The notes: generated from the letters alone by a model not told the origin. Positions 27,402 through 62,261 are shown, counted from the stretch's first letter. The stretch: DNA of 64,000 nt from Betaproteobacteria bacterium (GCA_009377585.1 WHTS01000004.1:11874-75873), one strand, 5' to 3'. Made by a program: numbers and translations.

Positions 27402-27590
27402 CTCCCCTCTCCCTCCGGGAGAGGGGCTGGGGGGTGAGGCTGGGAATTCGCGAACCATGGTTCGCGCCGGCCGAACGGCATCGGCATGCAGGCCGATGCA
27501 CGCACGGCAAGTGAGGGAGATCGTAAGCAAGACGCATAATTCCCTCACCCTCGATCCCTCTCCCGAAGGGAGAGGGAAGACAAGCATACG
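27402..27590. repeat. Inverted pair of CCCTCTCCC/GGGAGAGGG hairpin REP elements
   Basis: 27402-27439 and 27542-27590; each arm matches one arm of the 57230-57340 doublet in reverse orientation almost exactly. Confidence 0.85.
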
Positions 27591-29356
27591 TCGAGCGCGA
27601 GCGCCGCTTCGACCCGTTGCTTACCGTAAATCGCTTCGGCTCGCTCCCGCGATATCCGTTCATCGCGCAGATCGGCAGCCAGCGCGCGCAGATCGCGCTC
27701 CCCCGGGGCGCCGTAGCCGCCGCCGCCCGGCGTTTCGATCCGCATCGAATCGCCCGGCGCCATCTCGATGCGAGCGACCTTCGAGTAATGCGCCTGCGCC
27801 GCGGGCGTGCCGTGATTCTGAATCAGCTGCGCCCGGCGGCCGTCCTGGCCGCCGAAGACGCCGGTCGGAATCCCGACGGCATGGCTATCGGAGCGCACGG
27901 AGAAGATGGTGTTAGCAACCAGCGCCCGGATCTGGCGCGCGATGCCCATGCCGCCGCAGTGACGCCCGGCCCCGCCCGAATCCGGCACGAGCGCGTACTC
28001 GTCCACGCGCAGCGGGTACTCGTTCTCCAGCGCCTCCACCGGCAGGTTCGAGGTGTTGGTCATGTGCACGTGCACCGCGTGCATGCCGTCGCCGTCGTGG
28101 CGCGCGCCCGAGCCGCCGCCGAGCGTTTCGAGATAGACGTAGTATCCGCTGCGGCGCTCGAGCTCGCCCGAGAACACGATGGCCGGCACGACATCGTTGC
28201 CCGAAGCCATCACGCGTGCGGGCGGCAGCAGGTCGCGGAACGCGCCGAAAATGGCGCCGCACACCTTCTGGCAGGTGATCGAGCGCGCGCCGACTGCCGC
28301 CGGAGCGCGCGGATTGACGATACTGCCGAGCGGCGCCTCGATCTCGACCGTGTCGAACAAGCCGGCATTGGGCATGAGCTCCGGGTCGAGCAAGGCCTTC
28401 AGCGAATAGTAGACGCATGCCTGCAGGGCATTGATCGGCACGTTCATCGCGCCGCGCGCCTGCGCGCCCGAGCCGGCGAAATCGATCGCGAGCCGCTCGC
28501 CCGCCACGCGCACACAGGCCGAGATCGGCACCGGATCGCCGCCCATGCCGTCGTCGTCGAGATACTCCGTGTAGCGGTATTCGCCGGCCTTCAGCTGCGC
28601 GATGCGGTTGCGCATGCGCCGGCGCGTGTAGTCGATCACGTCGTCGATGGCCGCGCGCACGGCCTCGATGCCCATCTGCCGGATCAGGCGCTGCGTCTCG
28701 GCGGCGCCGCGCGCGTTGGTCGCGATCTGCACCTGCAGGTCCAGCTTGCGCTCCTCCGGATCGCGCGTATTCACGGCGATCAGCTCCAGCAGCTCCGTGT
28801 CCAGGCGCCCAGCCTTGCAGATGCGCGTCACCGGCAGACGGATGCCTTCCTCGAACACCGAGCGCGACCCGCCCGCGATCGAGCCCGGCACCGCGCCACC
28901 GACGTCGGCATGGTGGCCGATGTTGGCGGCGAAGAACTCGATCCGTCCTTGCCAGAAGATTGGCGTGATGAGGGTGATGTCGGGCAGGTGCGTGCCATTG
29001 GCGAGATAGGGATCGTTGCAGATGAAGACGTCGCCTTCGCGGATCGATGCCGGAGTTACGCGCTCGAGCAGGGCGCGGATGCCGCCGTCGAGCGAGCCCA
29101 GGTGCAGGGGAATCTGGGTACCCTGCGCCACCAGCCGGCCGCGGCCGTCGAACAGCGCCACGGAGCAGTCGCGCCGCTCCTTGATGTTGGTCGAGAACGA
29201 CGAGCGCACCAAGGTGTTGTTCATGTCCTCCGTGATCGACATGAGGCGGTTGCTGAAGACCTCCATCGCGATCGGGTCGAAGCTGCGCCGCTCCGCCTCG
29301 CGCCGAGCGTCCTCGCGAGGATCCTGGTCTCTGAGCGGCGGTGTCGTCGCCATCAT
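27545..29356 (-). CDS. Hydantoinase B/oxoprolinase family subunit
   Basis: SSFSTNIKERRDCS, NDPYL.GTHLPD, HHADVGG.VPGS, YLETLGGGSGA, TNTSNLPVEALE.EYP, ETPGGGGYG. Confidence 0.92.
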   Translation of the reverse strand: MMATTPPLRDQDPREDARREAERRSFDPIAMEVFSNRLMSITEDMNNTLVRSSFSTNIKERRDCSVALFDGRGRLVAQGTQIPLHLGSLDGGIRALLERVTPASIREGDVFICNDPYLANGTHLPDITLITPIFWQGRIEFFAANIGHHADVGGAVPGSIAGGSRSVFEEGIRLPVTRICKAGRLDTELLELIAVNTRDPEERKLDLQVQIATNARGAAETQRLIRQMGIEAVRAAIDDVIDYTRRRMRNRIAQLKAGEYRYTEYLDDDGMGGDPVPISACVRVAGERLAIDFAGSGAQARGAMNVPINALQACVYYSLKALLDPELMPNAGLFDTVEIEAPLGSIVNPRAPAAVGARSITCQKVCGAIFGAFRDLLPPARVMASGNDVVPAIVFSGELERRSGYYVYLETLGGGSGARHDGDGMHAVHVHMTNTSNLPVEALENEYPLRVDEYALVPDSGGAGRHCGGMGIARQIRALVANTIFSVRSDSHAVGIPTGVFGGQDGRRAQLIQNHGTPAAQAHYSKVARIEMAPGDSMRIETPGGGGYGAPGERDLRALAADLRDERISRERAEAIYGKQRVEAALALDVCLSSLSLRERDRG

Positions 29357-44218: not shown

Positions 44219-44360
44219 GGCGAGCGCGCTGTGATGAATCGGAATGTCCGATGCTACCTTAGCGGCCCGCATGCGCGGTAGCTATACTGCCGGCTGTTGC
44301 GCTCGGACTGACGGGGGTCGAGCGGCGACGTCAGATCGCAGAGCTCGAGAGGAGGCCGAC

Positions 44361-46505
44361 ATGCCCAGCCGCAAACTGAAGATCGCCGGTCGCGAGCTGA
44401 CGCTCGATGCGCGCCCCGACCGCCTGGATCTGCGCGACCTGCCGTTTCGTCCCGCGGTTCAGTCGCTGCCCGCCGTCTATCCGAGCGATGCCGGCGTGGC
44501 CGAATTGCTGCCGGCGTATCAGGGAGCCGATCTGGTCCTGGACCAGGGCCAGGAAGGTGCGTGCACCGGCTTCGGGCTCGCGGTCGTCATCAATTACCTC
44601 TTGTGGGTGCGTTCGAGCCACAAGATGACGTCCGCCGACAAGGTGAGCGAGCGCATGATCTATCACCTGGCGCGCTTCTACGACGAGTGGCCGGGCGAGG
44701 ATTACGAAGGCTCGAGCTGCCGCGGCGCGTTGAAAGGCTGGCATCGCCATGGCGTGTGCGGCGAATCGCTCTGGCCTTACCGCAACGCCGACGGCGAAGT
44801 GACGTTCGTCGCCCCGCAAAACGAATGGGAGCTCGACGCGGTGCGCCGCCCGCTCGGCGTGTACTACCGCGTGGAACGCGAGTCGGTGGTCGATATCCAG
44901 GCAGCGATCCGGCAGACCGGGGCGGTGTACGTTTCGGCCACCGTGCACGAAGGCTGGGACGTGAAAACCGTGACCAAGCCGATATGCCACGACGCGCTGC
45001 CGACCATCAAGCCCAGCCGCAAGGGTCTCGGCGGGCATGCGTTCGCGCTGGTCGGTTACAACAACGTCGGCTTCATCGTGCAGAACTCCTGGGGGAAAAC
45101 CTGGGCCGCGTCGGGGTTCGCGGTGCTTCCCTATGAGGAATGGGTGCTGTGGGGAACCGATGCCTGGGTGGTCGGATTGGGCGCCCCGATCACGGCCGGT
45201 ACCAGGACGCGCAGCAACGTGCGCTCGATCGCGCCGCCGCGGCGTCACTTCATTCCGCCCTCGGCCCGTAACGCGCCGGCGAGCTCCGGGCTGTCGAGCC
45301 TGTTCCGCGGCGCACGCGACAAGTTCGCCGACAAGAAAGGTGTGTGGAGCAGCGACTACGCCTACAACCACACGCTGGTCACAGCCAACGACGGGCGCAC
45401 CGTCAATCGCCTGCTGCACGTCGCCAACGAGGACAAGAACACCGAGTACGTGGCGCTCACCAAGCCGCTGGAGTGGTTCGGGCAGCGGCCGCAGGGCGAG
45501 CCGTGGCGCCTGCTGGTGTACGCGCACGGCGGCCTCAATTCGGAAGAAGACTCGATCCAGCGCATCCGGCTGCTGGGCCCGCAGATCGAAGCGAATGCAA
45601 TCTACCCGCTGTTCGTGACCTGGAAGAGCGGCTGGCAGGAAACGATCGCCAACATGCTCGAGGACGGCTTCCAGTCCGAGTTCGGCCAGAGGGCGCCGGC
45701 CGAAGGGCTCGGCGAGGCAATGAGCGAAGCGACCGATCGCGCCGTCGAAGTGCTCTCGCGTCAGGTGCTGGCACGCAGCCTCTGGTCGGAGATGAAGGAG
45801 AACGTCGCCCGCGCCGCAGCCTCGGACCGCGGATTCTGTCTGCTCGCAAATCGCATCAAGGAACTGGCCGCGAAGGCAGACGGCAAGCTCGAAATCCACC
45901 TCGTGGGGCATTCGGCCGGGTCGTACGTACTCGGGCGCCTGCTCGGCGAGCTGGGCGTCGATCCGGTCGTGAAGGCGGCGTCGTGCACGCTGTACGCGCC
46001 GGCGTGCGACCTGGAATTTGCGCTCACGTACTTCAAGCCCGCCGTCGAGGGCGGCTGCCTGCCGGGCTCGGCGTTTCGGGTGCACCTGTTGAACGACAAG
46101 CTCGAGCGCGCCGACAGCATCGGCCCCTACCGCAAGTCGCTGCTCTATCTGGTGAGCCGTGCGCTCGAGCGCTGGCACAAGACGCCGTTGCTCGGGCTGG
46201 CGATTGCTTGGGATTCGCAGTATGCGGGCGAGGAACACTGGCACAAAGACACCCTGGAGCACGTGCGGCAGTGGCAAGCCTTCGCCTGGCCCGGCGAAAC
46301 CCGGCCGGGCGATTTCGCCGAACAAGGCAAGCCCGCTCCGGGCGGCTATCTGGCAGTGTTGAATGCGAGGCAAGTCGACTGCGGACCGCGCAAGATCGCG
46401 TCCACTCACGGCTGCTTCGACAACAGCATCGAAGTCGTGGGCCGCACGTTGAAGTGCATCCTGGGCAGCGAGCTGACGAAGAATCTCGACGATCTCGATT
46501 TCTGA
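44361..46505 (+). CDS. Papain-like (C1) cysteine peptidase fused to a C-terminal alpha/beta-hydrolase domain
   Basis: DQGQEGACTGF, GGHAFALVGY, FIVQNSWG (Q/C/H/N present); AHGGLN, VGHSAGS, STHGCFD; GAGGAGG RBS; no signal peptide visible. Confidence 0.85.
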   Translation: MPSRKLKIAGRELTLDARPDRLDLRDLPFRPAVQSLPAVYPSDAGVAELLPAYQGADLVLDQGQEGACTGFGLAVVINYLLWVRSSHKMTSADKVSERMIYHLARFYDEWPGEDYEGSSCRGALKGWHRHGVCGESLWPYRNADGEVTFVAPQNEWELDAVRRPLGVYYRVERESVVDIQAAIRQTGAVYVSATVHEGWDVKTVTKPICHDALPTIKPSRKGLGGHAFALVGYNNVGFIVQNSWGKTWAASGFAVLPYEEWVLWGTDAWVVGLGAPITAGTRTRSNVRSIAPPRRHFIPPSARNAPASSGLSSLFRGARDKFADKKGVWSSDYAYNHTLVTANDGRTVNRLLHVANEDKNTEYVALTKPLEWFGQRPQGEPWRLLVYAHGGLNSEEDSIQRIRLLGPQIEANAIYPLFVTWKSGWQETIANMLEDGFQSEFGQRAPAEGLGEAMSEATDRAVEVLSRQVLARSLWSEMKENVARAAASDRGFCLLANRIKELAAKADGKLEIHLVGHSAGSYVLGRLLGELGVDPVVKAASCTLYAPACDLEFALTYFKPAVEGGCLPGSAFRVHLLNDKLERADSIGPYRKSLLYLVSRALERWHKTPLLGLAIAWDSQYAGEEHWHKDTLEHVRQWQAFAWPGETRPGDFAEQGKPAPGGYLAVLNARQVDCGPRKIASTHGCFDNSIEVVGRTLKCILGSELTKNLDDLDF

Positions 46506-46515
46506 GACGACGTTC

Positions 46516-48318
46516 ATGCCTGCAGCGGTGCACAACGCCGGCAACCGGGACGAAAGCCCGCGCTCGCTCGCCGAGCGCGTGCGCCGCGAGCAGATCCGCG
46601 CGCTTTACGAAGAGCTGCCCTTCTCCGCACTCGGGATGACGATCGGCGGCGTGATCGTGGTCGCGGGCCTGTGGCAATCGAATACCCCGCGCTCGCTCAT
46701 GATCCTGTGGCTGGGATTGATCGCCGCCAACCAGAGCTGGCGACTGCTGCTGTATCGGCAGTTCCAGCGCGCCGAGCCGGCAACGCGCAGCACCGGGCTG
46801 TGGGGGCGGCGCTGGGCGCTGGGTGCGCTCTATTCGGGCCTGACGTGGGGATCGAGCGCGCTGTTCATGTTCGATCCGGCCAGCGCGAACTACCAGGCCT
46901 ATCTGGTGATCTGCCTGGTCGGAGTCACTGCCGGCGCGCTGGCGCTGGTCACCATCGACCTGCGCTCGTTCTTCCTCTTCATCGTCCCTACCTTGTTGCC
47001 GATCACGGCGCGGCTGGTGGCCGAAGCCGATCGCATGCATCTCTGGATGGCGGCGGTCTGCGCGCTGGTGCTGTGCGTACTGATCAAGTTCGGCCTGAAG
47101 CTCAACCGCGAGCTCGAGCAATCGCTATACAACCGCTTCTTGCTCGACGACGAACGGCGCCTGGCCGAGCGCGCGCGCCAGCAAGCGGAAGTTGCGACGC
47201 AGGCCAAGTCGAAGTTCCTGCAGGCGACCAGTCACGATCTGCGCAACGACGTGCAGGCGATCAGCCTGCTCACCGACCAGCTGGCGCAGGCGAATCACGA
47301 TCCGAAGCAGCATGAGCGCGTGGCCGCCATCGCCGCCTCGGCGCGCACGGTGGGGCGGCTCGCCGACGACCTGCTGTCGGTATCGCGTCTGGATGCGGGC
47401 GATATCCAGCCGTTCGTGACCGCAGTCGCGCTGCAGCCGCTGTTCGACTCGATCGAGCTGGAGTTCGGCCACCTCGCCGCCCAGCAGGGCATCGCGCTTC
47501 GCATCCAACCGACGCCGCTCGCCGTGACGACCGATCGCATGCTGCTCGAACGCATCGTGCGCAACCTGGCGAGCAACGCCGTGCGCTATACGCGCTCCGG
47601 CGGCAGCGTCGAGATCGGCGTGCACGCCGAGGATAACGCAGTGCGGATCGAAGTCCGCGACACCGGCATCGGGATCGCGCCGCAGGACCAGCAACGCATC
47701 TTCGACGAGTTCTATCAGGTGGCGGGCAGCGCAGCCAGCAAAGGGCTGGGCATCGGATTGTCGATCGTGCAGCGCTTCGTCGAGCTGCTCGGCCACCGCT
47801 TGACGGTCGAGTCGATGCCCGGCCGCGGCTCCACCTTCGGCATCCACCTGGCGGCGGCCGCCGCTCCGGCGCCCGAATCGGTGCACGAGCCGGCGCTGCC
47901 CAATCCGCTGCGAGGACGGGTCGCCTTACTGGTGGACGACGATGCGGCGGTCCTGAGCGGCATGGCCGACAAATTGAGGAGCTGGGATCTCGAGGTGTTC
48001 GCGGCGACCGATGCCGACCAGGCGCTGGCTGCCCTGGAAGGCGCACGGCACGTCCCGGCGCTCATCGTCGCCGACTACCAGCTGGGCACGGACGAGAACG
48101 GGATCGCGCTGGTGGATCGTGTCCGCAGCCGTTTCGCGAGCCCGATCCCGGCGCTGCTGGTGACCGGCTACGGCGGCGACGAGCACCGCGCGCCGGCCGC
48201 GGCGCGCGGCATTCGCATTCTCGCAAAGCCGGTCAAGCCGGCCCAGCTGCGGCTCGCGCTGGAAGATGCGCTCAGAATCGAGGGCTCGCGCTGGGAGACG
48301 CGCTCAGTACCGAGCTGA
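46516..48318 (+). CDS. Membrane hybrid sensor histidine kinase/response regulator
   Basis: About 5-6 N-terminal TM helices; ATSHDLR H-box; NLASNAVRYT, DTGIGI, F, GLGIGLS boxes; C-terminal REC domain (VDDD, ADYQL, KPV). Confidence 0.92.
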   Translation: MPAAVHNAGNRDESPRSLAERVRREQIRALYEELPFSALGMTIGGVIVVAGLWQSNTPRSLMILWLGLIAANQSWRLLLYRQFQRAEPATRSTGLWGRRWALGALYSGLTWGSSALFMFDPASANYQAYLVICLVGVTAGALALVTIDLRSFFLFIVPTLLPITARLVAEADRMHLWMAAVCALVLCVLIKFGLKLNRELEQSLYNRFLLDDERRLAERARQQAEVATQAKSKFLQATSHDLRNDVQAISLLTDQLAQANHDPKQHERVAAIAASARTVGRLADDLLSVSRLDAGDIQPFVTAVALQPLFDSIELEFGHLAAQQGIALRIQPTPLAVTTDRMLLERIVRNLASNAVRYTRSGGSVEIGVHAEDNAVRIEVRDTGIGIAPQDQQRIFDEFYQVAGSAASKGLGIGLSIVQRFVELLGHRLTVESMPGRGSTFGIHLAAAAAPAPESVHEPALPNPLRGRVALLVDDDAAVLSGMADKLRSWDLEVFAATDADQALAALEGARHVPALIVADYQLGTDENGIALVDRVRSRFASPIPALLVTGYGGDEHRAPAAARGIRILAKPVKPAQLRLALEDALRIEGSRWETRSVPS

Positions 48319-49476: not shown

Positions 49477-50202
49477 ATGCAGGTTCTCGTGGTCGACGAC
49501 CACCCGCTGTTGCGCTCGGCGCTGAAGGAAGCGATCAAGGACCTCGATGACGAAGTCGATGTCATCGAAGGCCGCGACGCGGCGGACGCCCTGCGGCTCG
49601 CCCGCGACCATCCCGGGCTCGACCTCGTCCTGCTCGACTACGCCCTTCCGGATGCCGACGGGGCCACGGTGCTGGCGGAGCTGAAGGCCGCGCACCCGAC
49701 GTTGCCGATCATCGTCATCTCGGGCTTCGACGGGCGCGAGATCGTGACGGCAGCGATGAATGCCGGCGCCTCCGGTTTCATTTCCAAGGGCTCGACGCCG
49801 AAGCTCATCGTCACGGCCATCCGCCTGGTGCTCGACGGCGGCAAGTACGTGCCGGAGAGCATGATGCCTGGCTCCGGCACGGCGGCGGCGCGCGTGGTTC
49901 CGCTCGCGCGTGGCACGACCAATGCCGAGGCCCTGGCGCGCTTGCGCAACCTCCTCACGCCGCAGGAGCTGCGCGTGCTGGGTTTGCTGCTCAAGGGCTA
50001 CAGCAACAAGGAGATCGCGCGCGCCATCGGCAAGGAGATCCCCTCGCAGCGCGGCAGCTCCATCGCGGAATCGACCGTCAAGGCGCACATGACCAACATC
50101 CTGCGCGCGCTCGACGTGGAGCGGCGCACGCAAGCCGCGCTGGCGGTGGAGCGGCTCGGCGTGCACGCGCACGACCTGCTCGGCGGCGAGGACAAGGCTT
50201 GA
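49477..50202 (+). CDS. NarL/LuxR-family response regulator
   Basis: VVDDHPL, LLDYALPD, FISKG; C-terminal LTPQELRVL..L..GYSNKEIAR...ESTVKAHMTNILRAL.V..RTQA. Confidence 0.93.
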   Translation: MQVLVVDDHPLLRSALKEAIKDLDDEVDVIEGRDAADALRLARDHPGLDLVLLDYALPDADGATVLAELKAAHPTLPIIVISGFDGREIVTAAMNAGASGFISKGSTPKLIVTAIRLVLDGGKYVPESMMPGSGTAAARVVPLARGTTNAEALARLRNLLTPQELRVLGLLLKGYSNKEIARAIGKEIPSQRGSSIAESTVKAHMTNILRALDVERRTQAALAVERLGVHAHDLLGGEDKA

Positions 50203-50239
50203 GCCCGACGCTGCACCCGCGCGCGTAGTCCATCCTATC

Positions 50240-51769
50240 GTGCGTGTCGGCATCGTGTCCGCTTTCGTCGACTACCATCGGCGCGGCGCGCACCACCGCG
50301 GCGTGCTGCAACCCCAGGTCGGTCCCCTGCTCGCCGCCTTGCTGCCCGCCGGCGTCGAGGTCGACGTGGTCAACGACGCCTGGACCGACCCCGACTGGGC
50401 GCGGGACTACGATCTGCTGCTGATCTCCTGCCTGCACTCGGACTTCGATCGGGCGCGGCAGATCTCGCACTATTGGCGCCGCCGCGGGGCAAAGACCGTG
50501 CTCGGGGGCATCATGGCGAGCACTTTCCCCGGCGTATGCGCACCCTGGTTCGACGCTATCGTCATCGGCGATCCGGAAGACACGGTGCCGCGTCTGGTCG
50601 ACGATTTCGCCCGCGGCAACCTGCAGCCGGTGTACCGCTCGCGCGGCTACCGTCCGGCTGCCGTGCCCACGCCGAAAGTCGAATTGATGGCCGAGCAGCA
50701 GCTTCTGCCGCTCGGGCTCGAAGCCACCCGCGGCTGCAATTTCGCCTGCGACTTTTGCGCCCTGACCGCCGCCGGCACCCGCTTCGAAACCCGGCCGGCC
50801 GGCCACGTGGTCCGCGATCTGATCGCGATGCGCGCAGCACTCGGTGCGCGCGCGCGCTGGCCGCGCGATGCCATGGTGATCTTCTACGACAACAACATCG
50901 GCGGCAATCCGCGTTATCTCGCCAGCCTCGCGCAGGCGCTCTCGCGCCTGAACATCCGCTGGGGGTCGTGCATCACCTTCAACGCAGCCGACGATGAGCA
51001 GCTCATCGCCACGCTGGCGCGCTCCGGCTGCCGCTATCTCTACGTCGGCCTCGAAAGTTTCAACGCACGCACCTTACGCAGCATGAACAAGCGCCAGAAC
51101 GTGATCGCCCGCACCCACACCATGATCCGGCGCTGTCACCGGCTAGGGATTCTGCTCGATGCCGGCCTCATGCTGAGCCCGCTCGAGGACGACCTCGAGT
51201 ACGTGCGCGCCATCCCCCGCCTGCTGGACGAAAGCGGCTTGAAGGTGCCGAGTTACATCTGTTTCGAGACGCCGATTCCCGGCACGCCGCACTTCCACAA
51301 GCTGGCCGCGTCGAAGACGCCCGCGCTGCTGCCCAATGCGCTGCTGCGCGACTTCAGCACCTACACCCTGGTGACGCGGCCGCGGCATGCGCCGGCAGCG
51401 GAATTCATCGCCGCCTACAAGACGCTCATCGCGGAAGTTTTCGCGCCGGCACGGCGCGCGCGCAAGCTCGCGCACGACGCACGCAGGCTGCTCCCCGACG
51501 GCGGCTGGTTCGCCTGGGCGCTCGATTGCGCCGCGCAGTACTGGAACGCCTACCGGCCCGATCCCGATCGAACCTATCTCGCCGGCAGCGATCGGGCGCC
51601 GCCCGAGGCCGAACGTATCCCGTTCGCTCCGGACGACTTCCGCGACGAGGAGGAGCTCGAGGCCATCATGAAACCCTGGGCCGTAGCCGATTGCAACGGA
51701 TTCGTATTGCCGCAGTGGCTCGGCGCGACACCGGCTCATGAGCGCAAGCGCCGGGCGTCGGTCGCCTGA
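50240..51769 (+). CDS. Radical SAM protein with N-terminal B12-binding-like domain
   Basis: KTVLGGIMAS, IGDPE; EATRGCNFACDFC (CxxxCxxC); FYDNN, YVGLES, TPIPGTP. Confidence 0.88.
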   Translation: MRVGIVSAFVDYHRRGAHHRGVLQPQVGPLLAALLPAGVEVDVVNDAWTDPDWARDYDLLLISCLHSDFDRARQISHYWRRRGAKTVLGGIMASTFPGVCAPWFDAIVIGDPEDTVPRLVDDFARGNLQPVYRSRGYRPAAVPTPKVELMAEQQLLPLGLEATRGCNFACDFCALTAAGTRFETRPAGHVVRDLIAMRAALGARARWPRDAMVIFYDNNIGGNPRYLASLAQALSRLNIRWGSCITFNAADDEQLIATLARSGCRYLYVGLESFNARTLRSMNKRQNVIARTHTMIRRCHRLGILLDAGLMLSPLEDDLEYVRAIPRLLDESGLKVPSYICFETPIPGTPHFHKLAASKTPALLPNALLRDFSTYTLVTRPRHAPAAEFIAAYKTLIAEVFAPARRARKLAHDARRLLPDGGWFAWALDCAAQYWNAYRPDPDRTYLAGSDRAPPEAERIPFAPDDFRDEEELEAIMKPWAVADCNGFVLPQWLGATPAHERKRRASVA

Positions 51770-51866
51770 GCTAGCCCGGATATTTCACCGGGCCGGCTCG
51801 GAACGGGACCAATGCCCTGCGTAAAGAAATGCTTATCGAGCGTTCCCTATTTCATGTCACGCTCGT

Positions 51867-51903
51867 CCCTCACCCTCAACCCCTCTCCCGGGGGGAGAGG
51901 GGA
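51867..51903. repeat. CCCTCTCCC/GGGAGAGGG REP element
   Basis: CCCTCACCCTCAACCCCTCTCCC...GGGAGAGGGGA, same family as 27402, 31460, 57303. Confidence 0.8.
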
Positions 51904-52034
51904 GCGTCGCGTCCGTATTGGACTGTCGTCCAATACGGAACGATCAATAAGAAGTGATTGTCAGTTCCAACTTGTACGTCGGCCTGCACGGGCGCTGGCG
52001 GCTCGATGAAATGTCCGGGCTGGACGGCGATCGA

Positions 52035-52982
52035 TCATGTTTTCACTTCGTTCAGCAGCGGGTGTGCGTCGCGCAGCCGCCGGCAGTTCTCGATCGCGAC
52101 GTCGAGGCTGCGCGCGAGCGTTTCCGCTGTGAGCCACGCCACGTGCGGCGTCATCACCACGTTGTCGAGTCGTGCGAGCGCGAGCCCGGCGCCGGCCGGC
52201 TCGACCGCCAGCACATCCACGCCCGCCGCGCGCAGCCGCCCCGACTGCAGCGCCTGCACCAGGGCCGCCTCATCGACCAGACCGCCGCGGGCCGTGTTCA
52301 CGAGCACCGCGCCGGGCTTCATGCGCGCAAGGGCGGCTGCGTCGATCATGCGCTCTGTTTCCGGGGTGAGCGGCACGTGCAGCGATACGATGTCGGCTGC
52401 AGCCAGCAGCTGCGGCAGCGCGAGGAATTCGCCGCCGGCTTCGGCCTTGCGGCTTCGGGCGGTGTACAACACACTGGCACCGAGGGCCTGCAATACGGGC
52501 GCGAGCCGCCGTGGCACCTCGCCGTAGCCGATCAATCCGACCGTGCGGCCCGCGATCTCGCCGACCGGGTCGAGGTTTTCCGGCGGCAGCGTCCAGCCCC
52601 GGCATTCGCGCGTGGCGCGATCGAGCAAGGGAATGCGGCGCAGCGCCGCCAGCATGAGCGCCAGCGTCATCTCGGCCACCGCCTGGCTGTTGGTCCCGGG
52701 CATGTTGGCGACGGCGATGCCACGAGCGCGCGCGGCGTCGAGATCGATCGTGTTCACGCCGACCCCGATCTTCTGGATCAGGCGCAGCCGCGGCGCGGCC
52801 GCGATCATCGCCGCGCTGACCGGCGTCAGCACGTGCAGGAGCACTTCGGCATCCAGCATCTCGCGGCGAAAGGCGGCTTCGTCGGCTTCGTCGACGATTG
52901 CAACCTCCAACCAATCGGGCGCAGCGGCGAGCAGCTGCTGCCGAAATGCCGGGCTCGCGCGAAAGTGCAGCACCGCCTTCAT
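52035..52982 (-). CDS. D-isomer-specific 2-hydroxyacid dehydrogenase
   Basis: GVGVNTID, NMPGTNSQAVAE, GLIGYG, LHVPLTPET, NTARGGLVDE, DVLAVEP, TPHVAW; ATGA overlap with the enolase. Confidence 0.92.
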   Translation of the reverse strand: MKAVLHFRASPAFRQQLLAAAPDWLEVAIVDEADEAAFRREMLDAEVLLHVLTPVSAAMIAAAPRLRLIQKIGVGVNTIDLDAARARGIAVANMPGTNSQAVAEMTLALMLAALRRIPLLDRATRECRGWTLPPENLDPVGEIAGRTVGLIGYGEVPRRLAPVLQALGASVLYTARSRKAEAGGEFLALPQLLAAADIVSLHVPLTPETERMIDAAALARMKPGAVLVNTARGGLVDEAALVQALQSGRLRAAGVDVLAVEPAGAGLALARLDNVVMTPHVAWLTAETLARSLDVAIENCRRLRDAHPLLNEVKT

Positions 52983-54268
52983 GGCGTTCGCTCGCGCGGC
53001 GCGAGGACGCTACGTCCGGCATAACGGGCGGCCGGGCCGAGCGCCTGTTCGATGCGCAGGCCCTCGTTCCACTTCGCCATGCGCTCGGAGCGAGCAAACG
53101 ATCCGACCTTGAGCTGGCCGCAGTTCCAGCCCACCGCCAGATGCACGATGCTGGCATCTTCGGTTTCGCCCGAGCGCGCCGACACGATCGTTGCGAAACC
53201 GTGCGCCCGCGCGGCCACCAACGCTTGCTTCGTTTCGGTGATGGTTCCGGCCTGGTTGGGCTTGAGCAGCACGGCGTTGCACGCGCCCGCCCGGGCCGCT
53301 TGTGCGATGCGCTCGGCGTTGGTCACCAAGTAGTCGTCGCCGATGATCTGCACGCTCGCACCGGCCGCGCGCGTGAAGGCTTGCATGCCGGTTGCGTCGT
53401 CTTCCGCCACCGGGTCCTCGATGGAAACGATCGGATAACGTGCGAGCCACGCCAAAAGCTGGTCGAGCCATTCGCCGCTATCCAGCTCGCGCCCTTCCAG
53501 CCCCAGCCGATAGCGGCCGTCATGGCCGAATTCGGATGCGGCGATGTCGAGCGCGATGGCGACCTCGCCGTTGCGGTAGCCCGCGGCCTCGATCGATTGC
53601 GCCAGGGCCGCCAGCGCCTCCTCGTTGGAATCGAACTGCGGCCACCAACCGCCCTCGTCGGCCACGCCAGCCCGGCGCCCTCGCCGTTCCATCCAGACAC
53701 CGGCGTGGCGATAGACTTCGGCGCACATCACCAGCGCCTCGTCGAACGATGCGGCGCCCACGGGCATTACGAGGAAATCCTGGATGTCGACACGGCGGCC
53801 GGCGTGCGCGCCGCCGCCGAAGATCTGGATCTGCGGCAGCGGCAGCGTGACCTCGCCGTCGCTCGCGAGATAGCGCCACAACGGCTGCCCGGCCCCAGCG
53901 GCAGCCGCCTGCAGCACCGCGCACGAGGTCGCGATCGTCGCGTTGCCGCCCAGGCGCGCCTTGTTCGGCGTCGCATCGAGCGCGACGAGCACCCGGTCAA
54001 CGCCTTCCTGGTCCAAGGCGTCCAGTCCCTGCAGCGCCGGCGCAATCGTGGTGTTCACGTTCCGCAATGCGTGCGAGACGCCGAATCCTCCCAACGCCTC
54101 GCCGCCGTCGCGCAGATCGACCGCTTCGTGCGTGCCGCGGGAGGCCCCGGCCGGCGCCATGCCGCGGCCGCGTGCGCCGCATGCCAGCGCCACCTCCACC
54201 TCGACCGTGGGCCGCCCACGCGAGTCCCAGATCCGGCGGGCCGTGACCTGCTCGATTCTCGTGCTCAT
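52979..54268 (-). CDS. eno: Enolase paralogue with altered active-site residues
   Basis: DSRGRPTVEVEV, GASRG, GGAHA, DEGG, LDIAASEF, SIEDP, GDD, KPNQ, RSGETED, QLKVG, RSERMAKWN; QDF replaces QEF and SARSG replaces SHRSG. Confidence 0.88.
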   Translation of the reverse strand: MSTRIEQVTARRIWDSRGRPTVEVEVALACGARGRGMAPAGASRGTHEAVDLRDGGEALGGFGVSHALRNVNTTIAPALQGLDALDQEGVDRVLVALDATPNKARLGGNATIATSCAVLQAAAAGAGQPLWRYLASDGEVTLPLPQIQIFGGGAHAGRRVDIQDFLVMPVGAASFDEALVMCAEVYRHAGVWMERRGRRAGVADEGGWWPQFDSNEEALAALAQSIEAAGYRNGEVAIALDIAASEFGHDGRYRLGLEGRELDSGEWLDQLLAWLARYPIVSIEDPVAEDDATGMQAFTRAAGASVQIIGDDYLVTNAERIAQAARAGACNAVLLKPNQAGTITETKQALVAARAHGFATIVSARSGETEDASIVHLAVGWNCGQLKVGSFARSERMAKWNEGLRIEQALGPAARYAGRSVLAPRERTP

Positions 54269-55332: not shown

Positions 55333-55400
55333 GGTCCCGTCTCAGAAGCTACGCCCCTCTGAAGTAGATAACACACAGACGATTCGAGCAAGATCGGAGC

Positions 55401-55454
55401 GAAAATGGGGACGCACACACTTTCCGCAGCGAAATTGTGTGCGTCCCCATTTTC
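55401..55454. repeat. Long inverted repeat (MITE/REP-like)
   Basis: Perfect 18-19-bp arms GAAAATGGGGACGCACAC / GTGTGCGTCCCCATTTTC with an inner mini-hairpin. Confidence 0.8.
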
Positions 55455-55487
55455 CCGCGCGCCAGTACGCCGGGCGGACGGCGAAAG

Positions 55488-57229: not shown

Positions 57230-57378
57230 TTGTGCTTGTCTTCCCTCTCCCTTTGGGAGAGGGATCGAGGGTGAGGGAAATTATGCGCGATGCCGAAGAC
57301 TTCCCTCACCCCCAACCCCTCTCCCGGAGGGAGAGGGGAGCGTATTGCGGAAAGCGGCTTGTCAGCCACTTTCCGGAT
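57230..57378. repeat. REP doublet (inward-facing pair) plus second hairpin
   Basis: Arms at 57230-57279 and 57303-57340; CGGAAAGCGGC..GCCACTTTCCG hairpin at 57346-57378. Confidence 0.85.
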
Positions 57379-59450: not shown

Positions 59451-62261
59451 TCACTTCCTGCCGCGTCGCGCCATCGCCGCAAAGATCCGCTGCAATCGCG
59501 CCCGATCGCGCGCTTCGAACACGCCTGCCTGAGCGCATAGATCGCACAACCGTTCGCCCGGATCCTGGGCAGCGGCGCTGACCGCGTTCTTGAACCGGTC
59601 GCGCAGCTGCTTCACCTGCAATGCGAGGCGCTCCGCCTGCAGCTCGGGCGGCGTATCGAGGCCGAGCAGCAGCTCCAGCGCGAGCAAATCTTCGAGCCGC
59701 TGCGAAGCCACCCGCGTCAGGCGCTTGTGGTGATCGCTGGCAACCACCGCATCGCCGAGCGCTCGCAATGCGGCATCGAGGCGCGCATTCATCTTCTGTT
59801 CGCAGGCACCGGAGAGCTTCGGCAGCTCGCTCCACTGCGCGCGCGCCGCTTCGGCCTGCCTGCCCGCCGCGTCCGAATCGAGCTCGTTTTGCAGCAGCGC
59901 ATCGAGCCGCTCGCATAATTGCTCCTTGAGCGCGAGCGTGTCCCACGCCGCCGTCTCGCGCGAGCGCGCGCGCGAACGCAGCAGCGCCTCGACCGCGCCG
60001 AGCGCGTGCCGGTAGCGAGCTTCCAGGCCACGCAGCGCCGGATCGGAGCCGCCGGCTTGCGACTTCCAGCGCGCCTGCAACTCGCGCAGCTCGCGCCGGA
60101 TCAGCTCGTCGCTCTTGTCCGAGGCCTGCGCGAGGCGATCCAGCTCGGTCGCGATGTCTTCCAGCGCGCGCGTGGCTTCCTGTTTGCGGCCGTCGGCCTC
60201 GCTGCGCTTGTCGTGCCGCGCCTTGAACACCGCGTCGCAGGCCGCGCGAAACTCCTCCCACAGCGCGCGCTCGTCGCGCTGCGGCAGCGGCATGGCCTTG
60301 GCGTTTTCCTGCCAGCGAGCCTGGATCGCCTTCACCTGCGAGGGCGCGTCGCGTTCGAGCGCCTTGGCCGCGAGCCCGCGCACCTCTTCGATGAGCGAGC
60401 GCCGCGTGGCTTTTGCCTGCTCGCGCGCTTCGCCCAGCACGCCGCGCAGCGGTGCCAGCGCGGCCTTGAGCCGGCCGTCGAGCTCCTTCCACAGCTTGGG
60501 CTCGATGCTGCCCAGGTCGCCCTCGCGCCACGTGTGATCGGTTTCGCGCAGCCAGCGCTCGATCGCGCGTCGATCGCGCGGCTCCTGCACGAGCAGCACC
60601 GCCTGGTCGGTGGCCGTGGCGATGAACGCTTCGCGCTTGTGCCGAGCTTCCTTGCGACGTACGGCCTGCTCGGCGAAATGGCGCGCAGCCGGAGCGTACC
60701 CCTTTTCGCAGGCGCGGTCGAAACGCTCCCACAGCGCCTTGGGAACGCCCGCGTATTGCTGATCCAGCGCCTTCCATTCGTTGCGCAGCGTCTGCACTTC
60801 CTGCGCGAGCTGGCGCATGTCGCCGCTGAACTGGGCAGCCGCCTCGGCCCGCTCGCACAACTGCACCCGAGCGTTGTGCTGGCCGAAAGCCTGCCAGCGT
60901 TCCAGCTCGACCAGCTGCTGCTGCAGCCGCCCCATGCGCTGCGTGGTCGGCTTCGGCAGTGTTCCCACAGCCACGCGCACGCGCTTCACTTCGTCCGCAG
61001 CCGTGCGCGCCTCTTTCAACTGGCCGGCCGCGAGCGCCAGCTCCGCGGTATGCAGCAAGGCGTGCAGATGCTGGCGGGCGGCGTTCGCTTCCTGCTGCGC
61101 GATCTCGGTGTGCGCGCGCCGCCGCTGCTCGACGGCGATCAGCGCGGCTTCGAAGCGTCGCGTGAAGGTGGGCGTGCGCAGCGAACGGTCGAGCCCTTCC
61201 CAGCGTTTGGGCAAATCGCCATGGTCGATGTAGGTGCCCGCGGCCAGTCGCTCCGCTTCCAGCACGAGCGCCTCGGCATCGGCCCGAGCCGCCACTTCCT
61301 GCTCGATGCCCTGCAAGCGCTCTTCCACCTGCGCCAGCTCCGCGAACACGCGCTCGTGCGACATCGATTCGGCTTCGGTGCGCAGCTCCGCCAGGCGATT
61401 GCGCAGCTCGAGCATGGCGCCCGAGTCGGGTTCGTTCAGCGCCTGCAGCGAGTCGATCCATTCGCGCACGGCGGCCTCCAGGCGGCTGCGCGCGCGCTGC
61501 TCTTCCTGCTCGCGTTCGAAGCGAGCCTGCACGGCGCGCCGGGCGGCCTGCGAGCGCGCGAGGCGCCCTGAATCGCCGTTCATGTCGAGCGCCTGCCAGC
61601 GACGGTTCAAGTCCACCACTTCGGTGAGGATGGGCCCTGGCTTGTGCGCGAGCGCCTCCAGCTCGATCAGGATGACGTCGGCCTCGGCAGCCTGGTCGGC
61701 TTGCGTCTTGATGGCATCGACGCGGCTGCGGGCGAGCCGGTATACGCCGTGATCCTTGTTGCGTGCCGCTTCGGCGAGCCGGTCCAGTGCCTGCGCATCG
61801 TGCACGCGTTCGGCCGCAGCCAGGCGCGTCTCCGCATTGCCCGCGGACAGCGCCAGCTCGATCAATGCCGACGGGTCGCGGATGGCCTCGACCGCCATCA
61901 ACCGGCGCTTCGCATCCGCGGCGCGGCGTGCCGCTTCGACCCGGATGGCATCGTCGGTCTCTTCCGCCTGCAGCAGCTGCTGCGCGATGGCCTCGTCTTC
62001 GGCTCCGGCGATACGATCGCCCAGCGTGGCTGCGATGGCTTCGCGCACCTGACCGTCGGATTCGCTGCGCCACGCCAGGGCGAGCACGGCGAGATCGGTG
62101 CAGCGCTGTGCCGCGGCCATGCGAACCTCGGGCGCAGGATCGCCGGTGAGCAGCGCTTTCAACTCGTCCGATTCCGGCGCCAGCTCGCCGACCGCCTGCG
62201 CGCGCTGCGCGGGTTCCGCGTGTTCGTGCAGTGCGCCGCGCGAAAAGAATCTCGTGATCAT
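59451..62261 (-). CDS. DUF349-type large helical protein
   Basis: Repeated L...W...G/P....LW.RF..AC..F units (ALWERFDRAC, ALWEEFRAACDAVF); helical Ala/Glu/Arg-rich composition. Confidence 0.8.
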   Translation of the reverse strand: MITRFFSRGALHEHAEPAQRAQAVGELAPESDELKALLTGDPAPEVRMAAAQRCTDLAVLALAWRSESDGQVREAIAATLGDRIAGAEDEAIAQQLLQAEETDDAIRVEAARRAADAKRRLMAVEAIRDPSALIELALSAGNAETRLAAAERVHDAQALDRLAEAARNKDHGVYRLARSRVDAIKTQADQAAEADVILIELEALAHKPGPILTEVVDLNRRWQALDMNGDSGRLARSQAARRAVQARFEREQEEQRARSRLEAAVREWIDSLQALNEPDSGAMLELRNRLAELRTEAESMSHERVFAELAQVEERLQGIEQEVAARADAEALVLEAERLAAGTYIDHGDLPKRWEGLDRSLRTPTFTRRFEAALIAVEQRRRAHTEIAQQEANAARQHLHALLHTAELALAAGQLKEARTAADEVKRVRVAVGTLPKPTTQRMGRLQQQLVELERWQAFGQHNARVQLCERAEAAAQFSGDMRQLAQEVQTLRNEWKALDQQYAGVPKALWERFDRACEKGYAPAARHFAEQAVRRKEARHKREAFIATATDQAVLLVQEPRDRRAIERWLRETDHTWREGDLGSIEPKLWKELDGRLKAALAPLRGVLGEAREQAKATRRSLIEEVRGLAAKALERDAPSQVKAIQARWQENAKAMPLPQRDERALWEEFRAACDAVFKARHDKRSEADGRKQEATRALEDIATELDRLAQASDKSDELIRRELRELQARWKSQAGGSDPALRGLEARYRHALGAVEALLRSRARSRETAAWDTLALKEQLCERLDALLQNELDSDAAGRQAEAARAQWSELPKLSGACEQKMNARLDAALRALGDAVVASDHHKRLTRVASQRLEDLLALELLLGLDTPPELQAERLALQVKQLRDRFKNAVSAAAQDPGERLCDLCAQAGVFEARDRARLQRIFAAMARRGRK

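Follow-up and report, generated by a model that had tools for sequence, protein, structure and literature searches.

A variant branch of enolase and its kinase partner as a candidate two-step module for a hydroxy acid

A 64,000-nucleotide stretch of DNA from Betaproteobacteria bacterium (GCA_009377585.1, WHTS01000004.1:11874-75873), which we call the window, encodes an enolase paralog on its minus strand. This paralog has Asp and Ala where canonical enolases have Glu168 and His373 (yeast numbering is used for canonical enolases throughout, and positions in the window are counted from its first letter). The gene directly upstream encodes a small-molecule kinase with the fold of MtnK. This kinase partner is the most informative feature of the locus, and a preliminary description made from the sequence did not mention it. 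We argue with good confidence that the kinase and the variant enolase act one after the other, as a two-step module that makes a product of the phosphoenolpyruvate (PEP) type from a hydroxy acid. The enolase and its private kinase may well share an intermediate of their own that is not 2-phospho-D-glycerate (D-2PG). Taken as a whole, an old kinase-coupled branch of enolase that forms a two-step module with the upstream kinase is the best explanation we have, and we hold it with moderate confidence.

The paralog is a full-length protein of the enolase fold. It matches Pfam Enolase_N and Enolase_C from end to end and scores 469.3 bits against TIGR01060, above the curated equivalog cut-off of 300. 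Its best sequence match in the PDB is a canonical enolase (396 bits), and the same search found no solved structure for any member of the Asp/Ala branch. The preliminary description had proposed a structure prediction. An AlphaFold2 (AF2) model built from 32 diverse relatives gives a confident enolase fold with a predicted local distance difference test score (pLDDT) of 94.8. It superposes on solved enolases with template modelling (TM) scores of 0.95-0.97 and root-mean-square deviations of 1.1-1.6 Å, at sequence identities of at most 50%.

Residue equivalences were taken from an alignment to solved enolases and to the canonical enolase of the same genome. Ten residues had been listed as the catalytic core and the alignment finds every one of them (yeast residue first): S39=S43, H159=H155, E211=E205, D246=D241, E295=E284, D320=D311, K345=K336, R374=R365, S375=S366 and K396=K387. 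These include the Mg2+ ligands S39, D246, E295 and D320, the catalytic K345, E211 and K396, and the phosphate site H159, R374 and S375. Glu168 and His373, which bind the C3 hydroxyl, are nearly invariant in canonical enolases, but the window protein has Asp164 and Ala364 instead. The GCG codon of Ala364 is two base changes away from every His codon. The preliminary description had read both altered motifs correctly, but it placed QDF one nucleotide off and gave a range for SARSG that covers S-A-R only; corrected positions are in Table 1. Its statement that E168 and H373 lie beside the 3-hydroxyl is borne out by E. coli enolase. There the hydroxyl of SF2312, which is analogous to the C3-OH of 2-phosphoglycerate (2-PGA), makes hydrogen bonds to Glu167, Lys392 and His369 (PMC6863902). 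The equivalent yeast residues are E168, K396 and H373.

The two substitutions are conserved across a clade and are not sporadic, which was the outcome on which the preliminary description had made its own reading depend. Among the 120 nearest homologues (69-96% identity) Asp is found in 120/120 and Ala in 119/120, and the WW of GGWWP and a KPN motif are each in 120/120. In a wider set, the best 150 matches from 1.84 billion cluster representatives, positions 168 and 373 co-vary nearly perfectly: Glu occurs with His, or Asp with Ala or Gly. The change is essentially one old event. When 45 diverse rows of the Asp/Ala group are compared with 86 canonical rows, five columns discriminate. Column 168 is Asp in 40/45 of the group versus Glu in 85/86 canonical rows, and column 373 is Ala or Gly in 41/45 versus His in 81/86. 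The Asn of the canonical NGGxHA motif (Asn in 79/86) is Ser or Gly in 41/45, and the residue after K396 is Val or Ile in 41/45, where canonical enolases have Thr, Ala or Ser. In the fifth column the Gly of GDEGG has become Ala in the group. The window protein carries this signature at G151, D164, A364 and V388. GASRG and GGWWP had been pointed out as well. Both motifs are there, but they mark the subclade of the window and not the Asp/Ala group. The Arg of GASRG is present in 99/120 close homologues while many other Asp/Ala members have Thr, and the WW varies across the wider group.

Phylogeny against canonical enolases, another check that had been suggested, puts D168 and A373 on one side of a well supported split. 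Unrooted maximum likelihood trees were made with quick searches for 131 full-length sequences and for 84 rows. The split between Glu/His and Asp plus Ala/Gly has a Shimodaira-Hasegawa-like approximate likelihood ratio (SH-aLRT) support of 100 in the former and 95 in the latter. The canonical side holds 86 rows, 80 of them Glu/His. Every sequence with Asp plus Ala/Gly is on the other side, and so is the window protein. The Asp/Ala branch spans at least the Alphaproteobacteria, Betaproteobacteria and Acidobacteriota. The window gene and all of its named relatives are annotated as "phosphopyruvate hydratase" or "enolase".

The kinase is tightly coupled to this branch. In the window its stop codon overlaps the start codon of the enolase in an ATGA at 54265-54268. 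We compared 82 loci from genomes and 45 loci of the Asp/Ala type from metagenomes, and 107 of them had enough upstream DNA to be scored. In 99/107 Asp/Ala loci the gene immediately upstream, on the same strand, is that of the kinase, versus 0/30 canonical loci picked up by the same scan as a control (Fisher p = 3e-23, with loci counted without phylogenetic correction). Six of the remaining eight have the kinase elsewhere in the locus. A distant subclade (47-50% identity), drawn largely from Acidobacteriota, has the same overlapping pair. Natural fusions of the kinase to the enolase exist in two different deep subclades (P0125, 770 residues; P0147, 745 residues), while the fusion partners of long canonical enolases are domains of unrelated kinds.

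Some loci depart from this arrangement. Two Asp/Ala-type loci (L096 and L118) have no kinase within the DNA that was fetched, and they may be exceptions or degraded copies. In L118 a family III CoA-transferase is found about 1 kb upstream and the 2-hydroxyacid dehydrogenase described below lies downstream. The order is reversed, Asp/Ala enolase and then kinase, in four Burkholderiales genomes (loci L172-L174 and L178; genomes G113, G120, G189 and G092). In Trinickia and Rhizobium loci the kinase and enolase are several kb apart with other genes between them.

The kinase itself has only remote relatives among curated families and solved structures. It scores 47 bits against the MTRK model (MtnK, TIGR01767), below the equivalog cut-off of 275. 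Its AF2 model (pLDDT 91.5) is nearest in fold to MtnK (2pyw) with a TM score of 0.76 at 14-15% identity, followed by PsiK, corramycin kinase and LxmK. Corramycin kinase is among the sequence matches as well as the fold matches. The catalytic HGD...N and DxE motifs are conserved. Many Arg and Lys residues are invariant, and these would suit an acidic substrate.

The distribution across genomes tells the same story of a pair that stays together. A balanced sample of 251 Burkholderiales genomes, each at least 90% complete, was examined. The kinase is found in 48/251, and in each of the 48 an Asp/Ala enolase lies beside it. Of these, 41/48 had been scored previously as carriers of the paralog. Inspection of the DNA showed an adjacent Asp/Ala enolase in the other 7/48 too; in three of these the locus runs off its contig, and in the other four the enolase comes before the kinase. 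There are also 14 genomes that lack the kinase and have two or three enolases, and all of those copies (29/29) are canonical, of the Asn/Glu/His/Thr type. Roughly a fifth of the Burkholderiales species in this sample carry the variant.

The paralog is a second enolase wherever it was checked. In the window's own assembly a canonical eno (QEF, SHRSG; 675 bits) is on another contig, and the two other sampled genomes of the same genus lack the paralog. Each of the 48 carriers gives two or more matches to the enolase family. We considered the paralog as the only enolase of its host and rejected this, as it is never the sole enolase-family match in the 251 Burkholderiales genomes. The paralog does not fill the housekeeping role in glycolysis and gluconeogenesis. 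The pair does not stand in for a missing glycerate kinase either. A known type of glycerate kinase is present in 39/41 tested carriers versus 37/39 non-carriers matched for size, which rejects that idea, and the window's own genome encodes a glycerate kinase of the MOFRL type. Cultured carriers of the pair include Paracoccus seriniphilus DSM 14827, Roseibium aggregatum, Azospirillum brasilense Sp7, Cupriavidus necator and Rhizobium spp. A 70%-identical pair of the betaproteobacterial type also appears on contigs labelled as metagenome-assembled genomes of Bifidobacterium, Dehalococcoidia and Bordetella parapertussis (L009, L016, L013, L031); these labels are probably binning or labelling errors.

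What the pair does can be argued from the residues that are kept and from those that are not. The residues for the carboxylate, the 2-phosphate, the two Mg2+ ions, the C2 proton and the leaving group are all retained, so the substrate of the variant is most likely a 2-phospho-carboxylic acid with a leaving group at C3. The kinase most likely makes this acid. In the genomes sampled kinase and variant always occur together, and the carriers that were checked have an ordinary enolase besides and, with few exceptions, a standard glycerate kinase. This suggests that the intermediate is private to the pair. A kinase that simply made D-2PG could rely on the canonical enolase of these carriers, and one would expect to find genomes with the kinase alone and genomes with the variant alone. 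Neither was seen, and we take this as the strongest reason to think the intermediate private. A private intermediate would also explain why the residues that touch the C3-hydroxyl have been replaced. Given the strict co-occurrence, the rebuilt pocket around the C3-OH and the standard enzymes that coexist with the pair, we consider a private intermediate a reasonable bet.

We infer the site of phosphorylation, the elimination chemistry, the PEP product and the identity of the substrate. In this scenario the MtnK-fold kinase would transfer a phosphate to the hydroxyl at C2 of a small 2-hydroxy acid resembling glycerate. With its two-Mg2+ site, Lys345, Lys396 and Glu211, the variant enolase would then abstract the proton from C2 and eliminate the group at C3 to give PEP or a close analogue of it. 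The phospho-intermediate would be one that an ordinary enolase cannot use, such as 2-phospho-L-glycerate or a 2-phospho acid modified at C3. Our order of preference for the starting acid is L-glycerate, then 3-sulfolactate, then a C4 2,3-dihydroxy acid. Among private intermediates 2-phospho-L-glycerate is the best fit to the sugar-acid contexts described below and to an achiral product. The C3-modified acids (3-sulfolactate and C4 dihydroxy acids) are possible. No sulfite-handling genes are among the recurrent neighbours of the pair, and 3-sulfolactate stays low in the ranking.

Gene neighbourhoods hint at where the hydroxy acid could come from. Downstream of the enolase in the window is a D-isomer-specific 2-hydroxyacid dehydrogenase (2-HADH), whose start codon overlaps the enolase stop codon in an ATGA at 52979-52982. 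Its best models are PGDH and glyoxylate/hydroxypyruvate reductase, but all 22 models score below their cut-offs (PGDH gives 213 versus 454 bits). An ortholog adjoins about 20-25% of Asp/Ala loci and 0/21 canonical loci. In the window this dehydrogenase could provide the hydroxy acid, starting from a 2-oxo acid. Clustering of the open reading frames from the 127 loci found no third conserved partner beyond the 2-HADH at about a quarter of them. Short-chain dehydrogenases/reductases (SDR), hydrolases of the fumarylacetoacetate hydrolase (FAH) family, acyl-CoA ligases, glpK, EamA transporters and ABC transporter components are each found at 7-15% of loci, some of them from single lineages. In one Burkholderiales lineage (L031, L037, L038, L042, L045, L052, L056, L058 and L063) a true GlpK (765 bits) is divergent from the pair, and the same loci have an EamA transporter, a thioesterase and an aldo-keto reductase downstream.

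A thiamine-diphosphate (ThDP) enzyme resembling acetolactate synthase is encoded upstream of the kinase. It reaches the cut-off of no curated model and its best PDB match is 129 bits. The gene is in this position only in relatives at 85-90% identity and is missing from the 82 other genome loci, so its membership of the kinase-enolase block is uncertain. Since it is conserved in near relatives only, we do not use it for inference. The enzyme keeps the catalytic Glu of the "HEG" motif and is therefore not of the glyoxylate carboligase type.

Annotated records of cultured isolates say more about the context. Plasmids of Roseibium aggregatum and Paracoccus seriniphilus have a divergent LacI gene followed by kinase, eno and FAH, and then by a sugar ABC transporter with one or two SDRs before it and more SDRs after it; a TctCBA transporter is encoded upstream. 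An environmental Burkholderia plasmid has the order SDR, UxuA, GntR, a second UxuA, SDR, SMP-30 lactonase, FAH, kinase, eno and sugar ABC transporter. On an Acidobacteriota contig an MFS transporter gene is followed by genes for a gluconate/galactonate-dehydratase-like enzyme and a DHDPS-family enzyme, and then by kinase and eno. By analogy the gene sets of these three kinds of locus match non-phosphorylative "diketo-hydrolase" routes, with the pair in the position of the last steps. An FAH-type hydrolase in such sugar-acid clusters would release pyruvate and the hydroxy acid that feeds the module. A hexose taken through a diketo-hydrolase route would give glycerate with a configuration set by the sugar, and the pair would carry this glycerate to PEP. 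Rhizobium plasmids have ppc (PEP carboxylase), the 2-HADH and the kinase in one operon. The enolase is in a neighbouring LacI-controlled cluster along with FAH, cupin, VOC and dehydrogenase genes. The ppc operon points to PEP as the product.

Several points weigh against our interpretation. The association statistics count loci and not independent events. The tree support comes from quick searches alone and the root is not placed, so what looks like a sister branch could be a grade in these sequence trees. The kinase is the only neighbour conserved at more than about a quarter of the loci, so what feeds the module may vary from lineage to lineage. A D-specific dehydrogenase at about a quarter of loci does not fit 2-phospho-L-glycerate, and in the loci that have it this enzyme speaks weakly against any substrate of the opposite (L) configuration. 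The 2-HADH, the hexonate-type clusters and the glpK of one lineage fit plain D-glycerate equally well. A full-text literature search found no paper on the Asp/Ala branch, and there is no curated family for it.

One can imagine a simpler scenario in which the kinase represents a novel class of D-glycerate 2-kinase and the variant is a true phosphopyruvate hydratase that acts on D-2PG, perhaps with channelling between the two. On this view the two substitutions would be neutral or would have been compensated. This is the most parsimonious reading. It agrees with a score of 469 bits where the curated enolase cut-off is 300, and with the retention of every residue known to be indispensable for the chemistry. 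PEP needs no extra dedicated enzyme, which fits the many loci that have only the pair, and several neighbours would make D-glycerate (the hydroxypyruvate-reductase-like 2-HADH and the clusters with UxuA-type and gluconate/galactonate-type dehydratases). In 9 loci the pair has a true glpK as its neighbour. We nevertheless find it doubtful. The canonical enolase of the carriers checked would do for D-2PG, yet the kinase was never found without the variant (48/48 genomes), and 39/41 carriers have a standard glycerate kinase in any case, the two kinases showing no complementarity. Neutral change also sits badly with Glu168 and His373, which touch the C3-OH and are almost invariant in canonical rows (85/86 and 81/86), and with the joint change of five columns near the active site. 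At the other extreme, the paralog could be a decaying or catalytically dead duplicate of eno. The replacement of two nearly invariant active-site residues speaks for such a copy, but we find decay hardly credible. The frame is intact, dN/dS (the ratio of nonsynonymous to synonymous substitution rates) is 0.13 against the closest relative and 0.23-0.24 against two relatives about 72% identical, and the paralog is under purifying selection. The substitutions are fixed over hundreds of species, the metal ligands and catalytic lysines are all kept, and the structure model is confident. The preliminary description was right to argue against decay. Its proposal of a pocket for a C3-substituted phospho-acid, or for one of opposite stereochemistry, may still hold, given that the kinase was found only beside the variant in the sampled genomes and that the carriers checked have standard enzymes already.

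Two further scenarios give the variant a different task altogether. It could racemise or epimerise a 2-phospho acid at C2, or eliminate a C3 phosphate placed there by the kinase in the manner of LxmK/LxmY. The lost helpers of hydroxide departure matter less if no hydroxide leaves, and LxmK, which phosphorylates hydroxyls for later elimination, is among the fold neighbours of the kinase after MtnK. We judge a different reaction of this kind improbable, as most members keep Glu211, the general acid for the leaving group, and S39, H159, R374 and S375 still form the site for the 2-phosphate and the second Mg2+. A two-base racemase would need a second base and none is evident. Elimination of a 3-phosphate wastes ATP relative to the standard route, and the ppc operon of Rhizobium points to PEP. 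The other scenario is resistance. The variant would be an enolase insensitive to inhibitors that mimic 2-PGA or its carbanion, such as SF2312, and the APH-family kinase would inactivate the inhibitor. The hydroxyl of SF2312 makes hydrogen bonds to precisely the two residues that differ in the variant (PMC6863902). APH-family kinases often modify antibiotics, corramycin kinase is a sequence and fold match, and the variant is always a second copy beside the canonical target. Still, fusions of the kinase to the enolase exist, the frequent operon partners are metabolic (2-HADH, FAH, SDR, sugar transporters, LacI), and no link to a biosynthetic cluster was seen. A deep and diverse branch also suits a metabolic role better, and we regard resistance as quite unlikely. 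A metabolic two-step module with an intermediate of its own is the scenario we prefer.

The consequences would be considerable. To our knowledge enolase proper is treated as a family with one function. If our interpretation is correct, that family would have in the Asp/Ala branch its first members with a job beyond the dehydration of D-2PG. Together with the kinase they would make up an undescribed two-enzyme route into PEP for a hydroxy acid that is out of reach of the ordinary enzymes, and thousands of genes annotated as "phosphopyruvate hydratase" would be mis-annotated. If the substrate is indeed something other than D-2PG, a textbook enzyme family would gain a new reaction, non-phosphorylative sugar-acid pathways would gain a missing last step, and many metabolic reconstructions would need to be corrected.

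Table 1. Positions in the window of the variant enolase, its diagnostic residues and motifs, and the adjacent genes
Feature	Position	Strand	Basis or remark
D-isomer-specific 2-hydroxyacid dehydrogenase (2-HADH), 315 aa	52035..52982	-	Pfam 2-Hacid_dh + 2-Hacid_dh_C
Asp/Ala-type enolase paralog, 429 aa	52979..54268	-	TIGR01060, Pfam, AF2, tree side
Val388, next after catalytic Lys387 (yeast K396)	53105..53107	-	Val/Ile in group
SARSG motif, aa 363-367	53168-53182	-	canonical SHRSG
Ala364 codon GCG (yeast His373 position)	53177..53179	-	Ala in 119/120 close homologues
GGWWP (canonical GGFAP)	53639..53653	-	subclade feature
QDF motif, aa 163-165	53774-53782	-	canonical QEF
Asp164 codon GAT (yeast Glu168 position)	53777..53779	-	Asp in 120/120 close homologues
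Gly151 (Asn in canonical NGGxHA)	53816..53818	-	discriminating column across whole group
GASRG (canonical GASTG)	54134..54148	-	subclade feature
APH-family, MtnK-fold small-molecule kinase, 355 aa	54265..55332	-	Pfam APH, AF2 fold
ThDP enzyme, acetolactate-synthase-like, 551 aa	55542..57197	-	Pfam TPP_enzyme N, M, C

The window has other features around this block. An intergenic palindromic element resembling repetitive extragenic palindromic (REP) sequences is present in at least three copies, at 27480-27620, 51800-51940 and 57240-57340. It consists of a small CCCTCTCCC/GGGAGAGGG hairpin and a long GGGTGAGGGA/TCCCTCACCC hairpin, and the copy at 57240-57340 folds with -79.9 kcal/mol (z -9.3). 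Two of the copies flank the block made up of the ThDP enzyme, kinase, enolase and dehydrogenase genes. Between the ThDP and kinase genes there is a hairpin with a perfect 22-bp stem (55392-55464; -47.4 kcal/mol, z -6.2) and no U-run. Possible roles for it are attenuation, RNA stabilisation or protein binding. A riboswitch scan of the intergenic regions found only hairpins, which match microRNA models weakly, by shape or chance. On the plus strand, convergent with the enolase block, the region 49477-51769 encodes a LuxR/GerE-type response regulator and a B12-binding radical SAM enzyme with weak matches to HpnJ and to PhpK-type methyltransferases. The synteny of these genes with the enolase block is kept in relatives at 85-90% identity. 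Further genes are unrelated to the enolase. These are a 936-residue protein of DUF349 repeats at 59451-62261 on the minus strand and, on the plus strand, a 753-residue protein with a papain-like C1 peptidase domain at 44244-46505, followed by a hybrid histidine kinase gene at 46516-48318.

It is worth comparing the pair with systems that are already known. Canonical enolase (EC 4.2.1.11; PF03952 and PF00113), as in E. coli, M. tuberculosis and yeast, has the same two-domain fold at no more than 50% identity. The Mg2+ ligands, Lys345, Lys396, Glu211, Arg374, Ser375, His159 and Ser39 are common to both, and proton abstraction followed by beta-elimination is probably common to both too. The variant differs in having Asp for Glu168, Ala for His373, Ser or Gly for the Asn of NGGxHA, Val or Ile for the Thr after Lys396 and Ala for a Gly of GDEGG. 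It also differs in being a second copy where this was checked, in being paired with or fused to a kinase, and in having catabolic rather than glycolytic contexts. The partner kinase resembles MtnK and the APH/choline-kinase fold in its fold and in its HGD...N and DxE motifs, but it adjoins an enolase and not methionine-salvage genes.

The logic of going from a hydroxy acid to a 2-phospho acid to PEP is already used by the glycerate 2-kinases (MOFRL/GckA/TtuD, PF05161; GlxK/GarK, PF02595) together with enolase. Their folds are unrelated to that of the partner kinase, and these standard kinases are not coupled to a private enolase. In the diketo-hydrolase scheme a sugar is converted to an aldonate, dehydrated, oxidised at C4 and cleaved by an FAH-type hydrolase to pyruvate and a short hydroxy acid. 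The L-rhamnose (LRA1-6), L-fucose and pentose (route III) pathways of this kind end at pyruvate and L-lactate or glycolate, and they do not need a kinase or an enolase. Several isolates have the same gene set near the pair: an SDR, a lactonase, an aldonate dehydratase, a second SDR and an FAH-family hydrolase. The difference is that a kinase and a variant enolase are appended here, as would be expected if the acid released is glycerate on its way to PEP. We know of no earlier description of a glycerate to PEP step at the end of such a route.

Within the wider superfamily, the acid-sugar dehydratases MR and ManD also abstract an alpha-proton from a metal-bound carboxylate and then carry out a beta-elimination, as we propose for the variant. 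Their substrates are acids without a phosphate and they fall into other subgroups, whereas the window protein is of the enolase subgroup and has its 2-phosphate site intact. PhpH of phosphinothricin biosynthesis is an enolase homologue, and it is a precedent for members of the enolase family acting on a modified phosphoglycerate.

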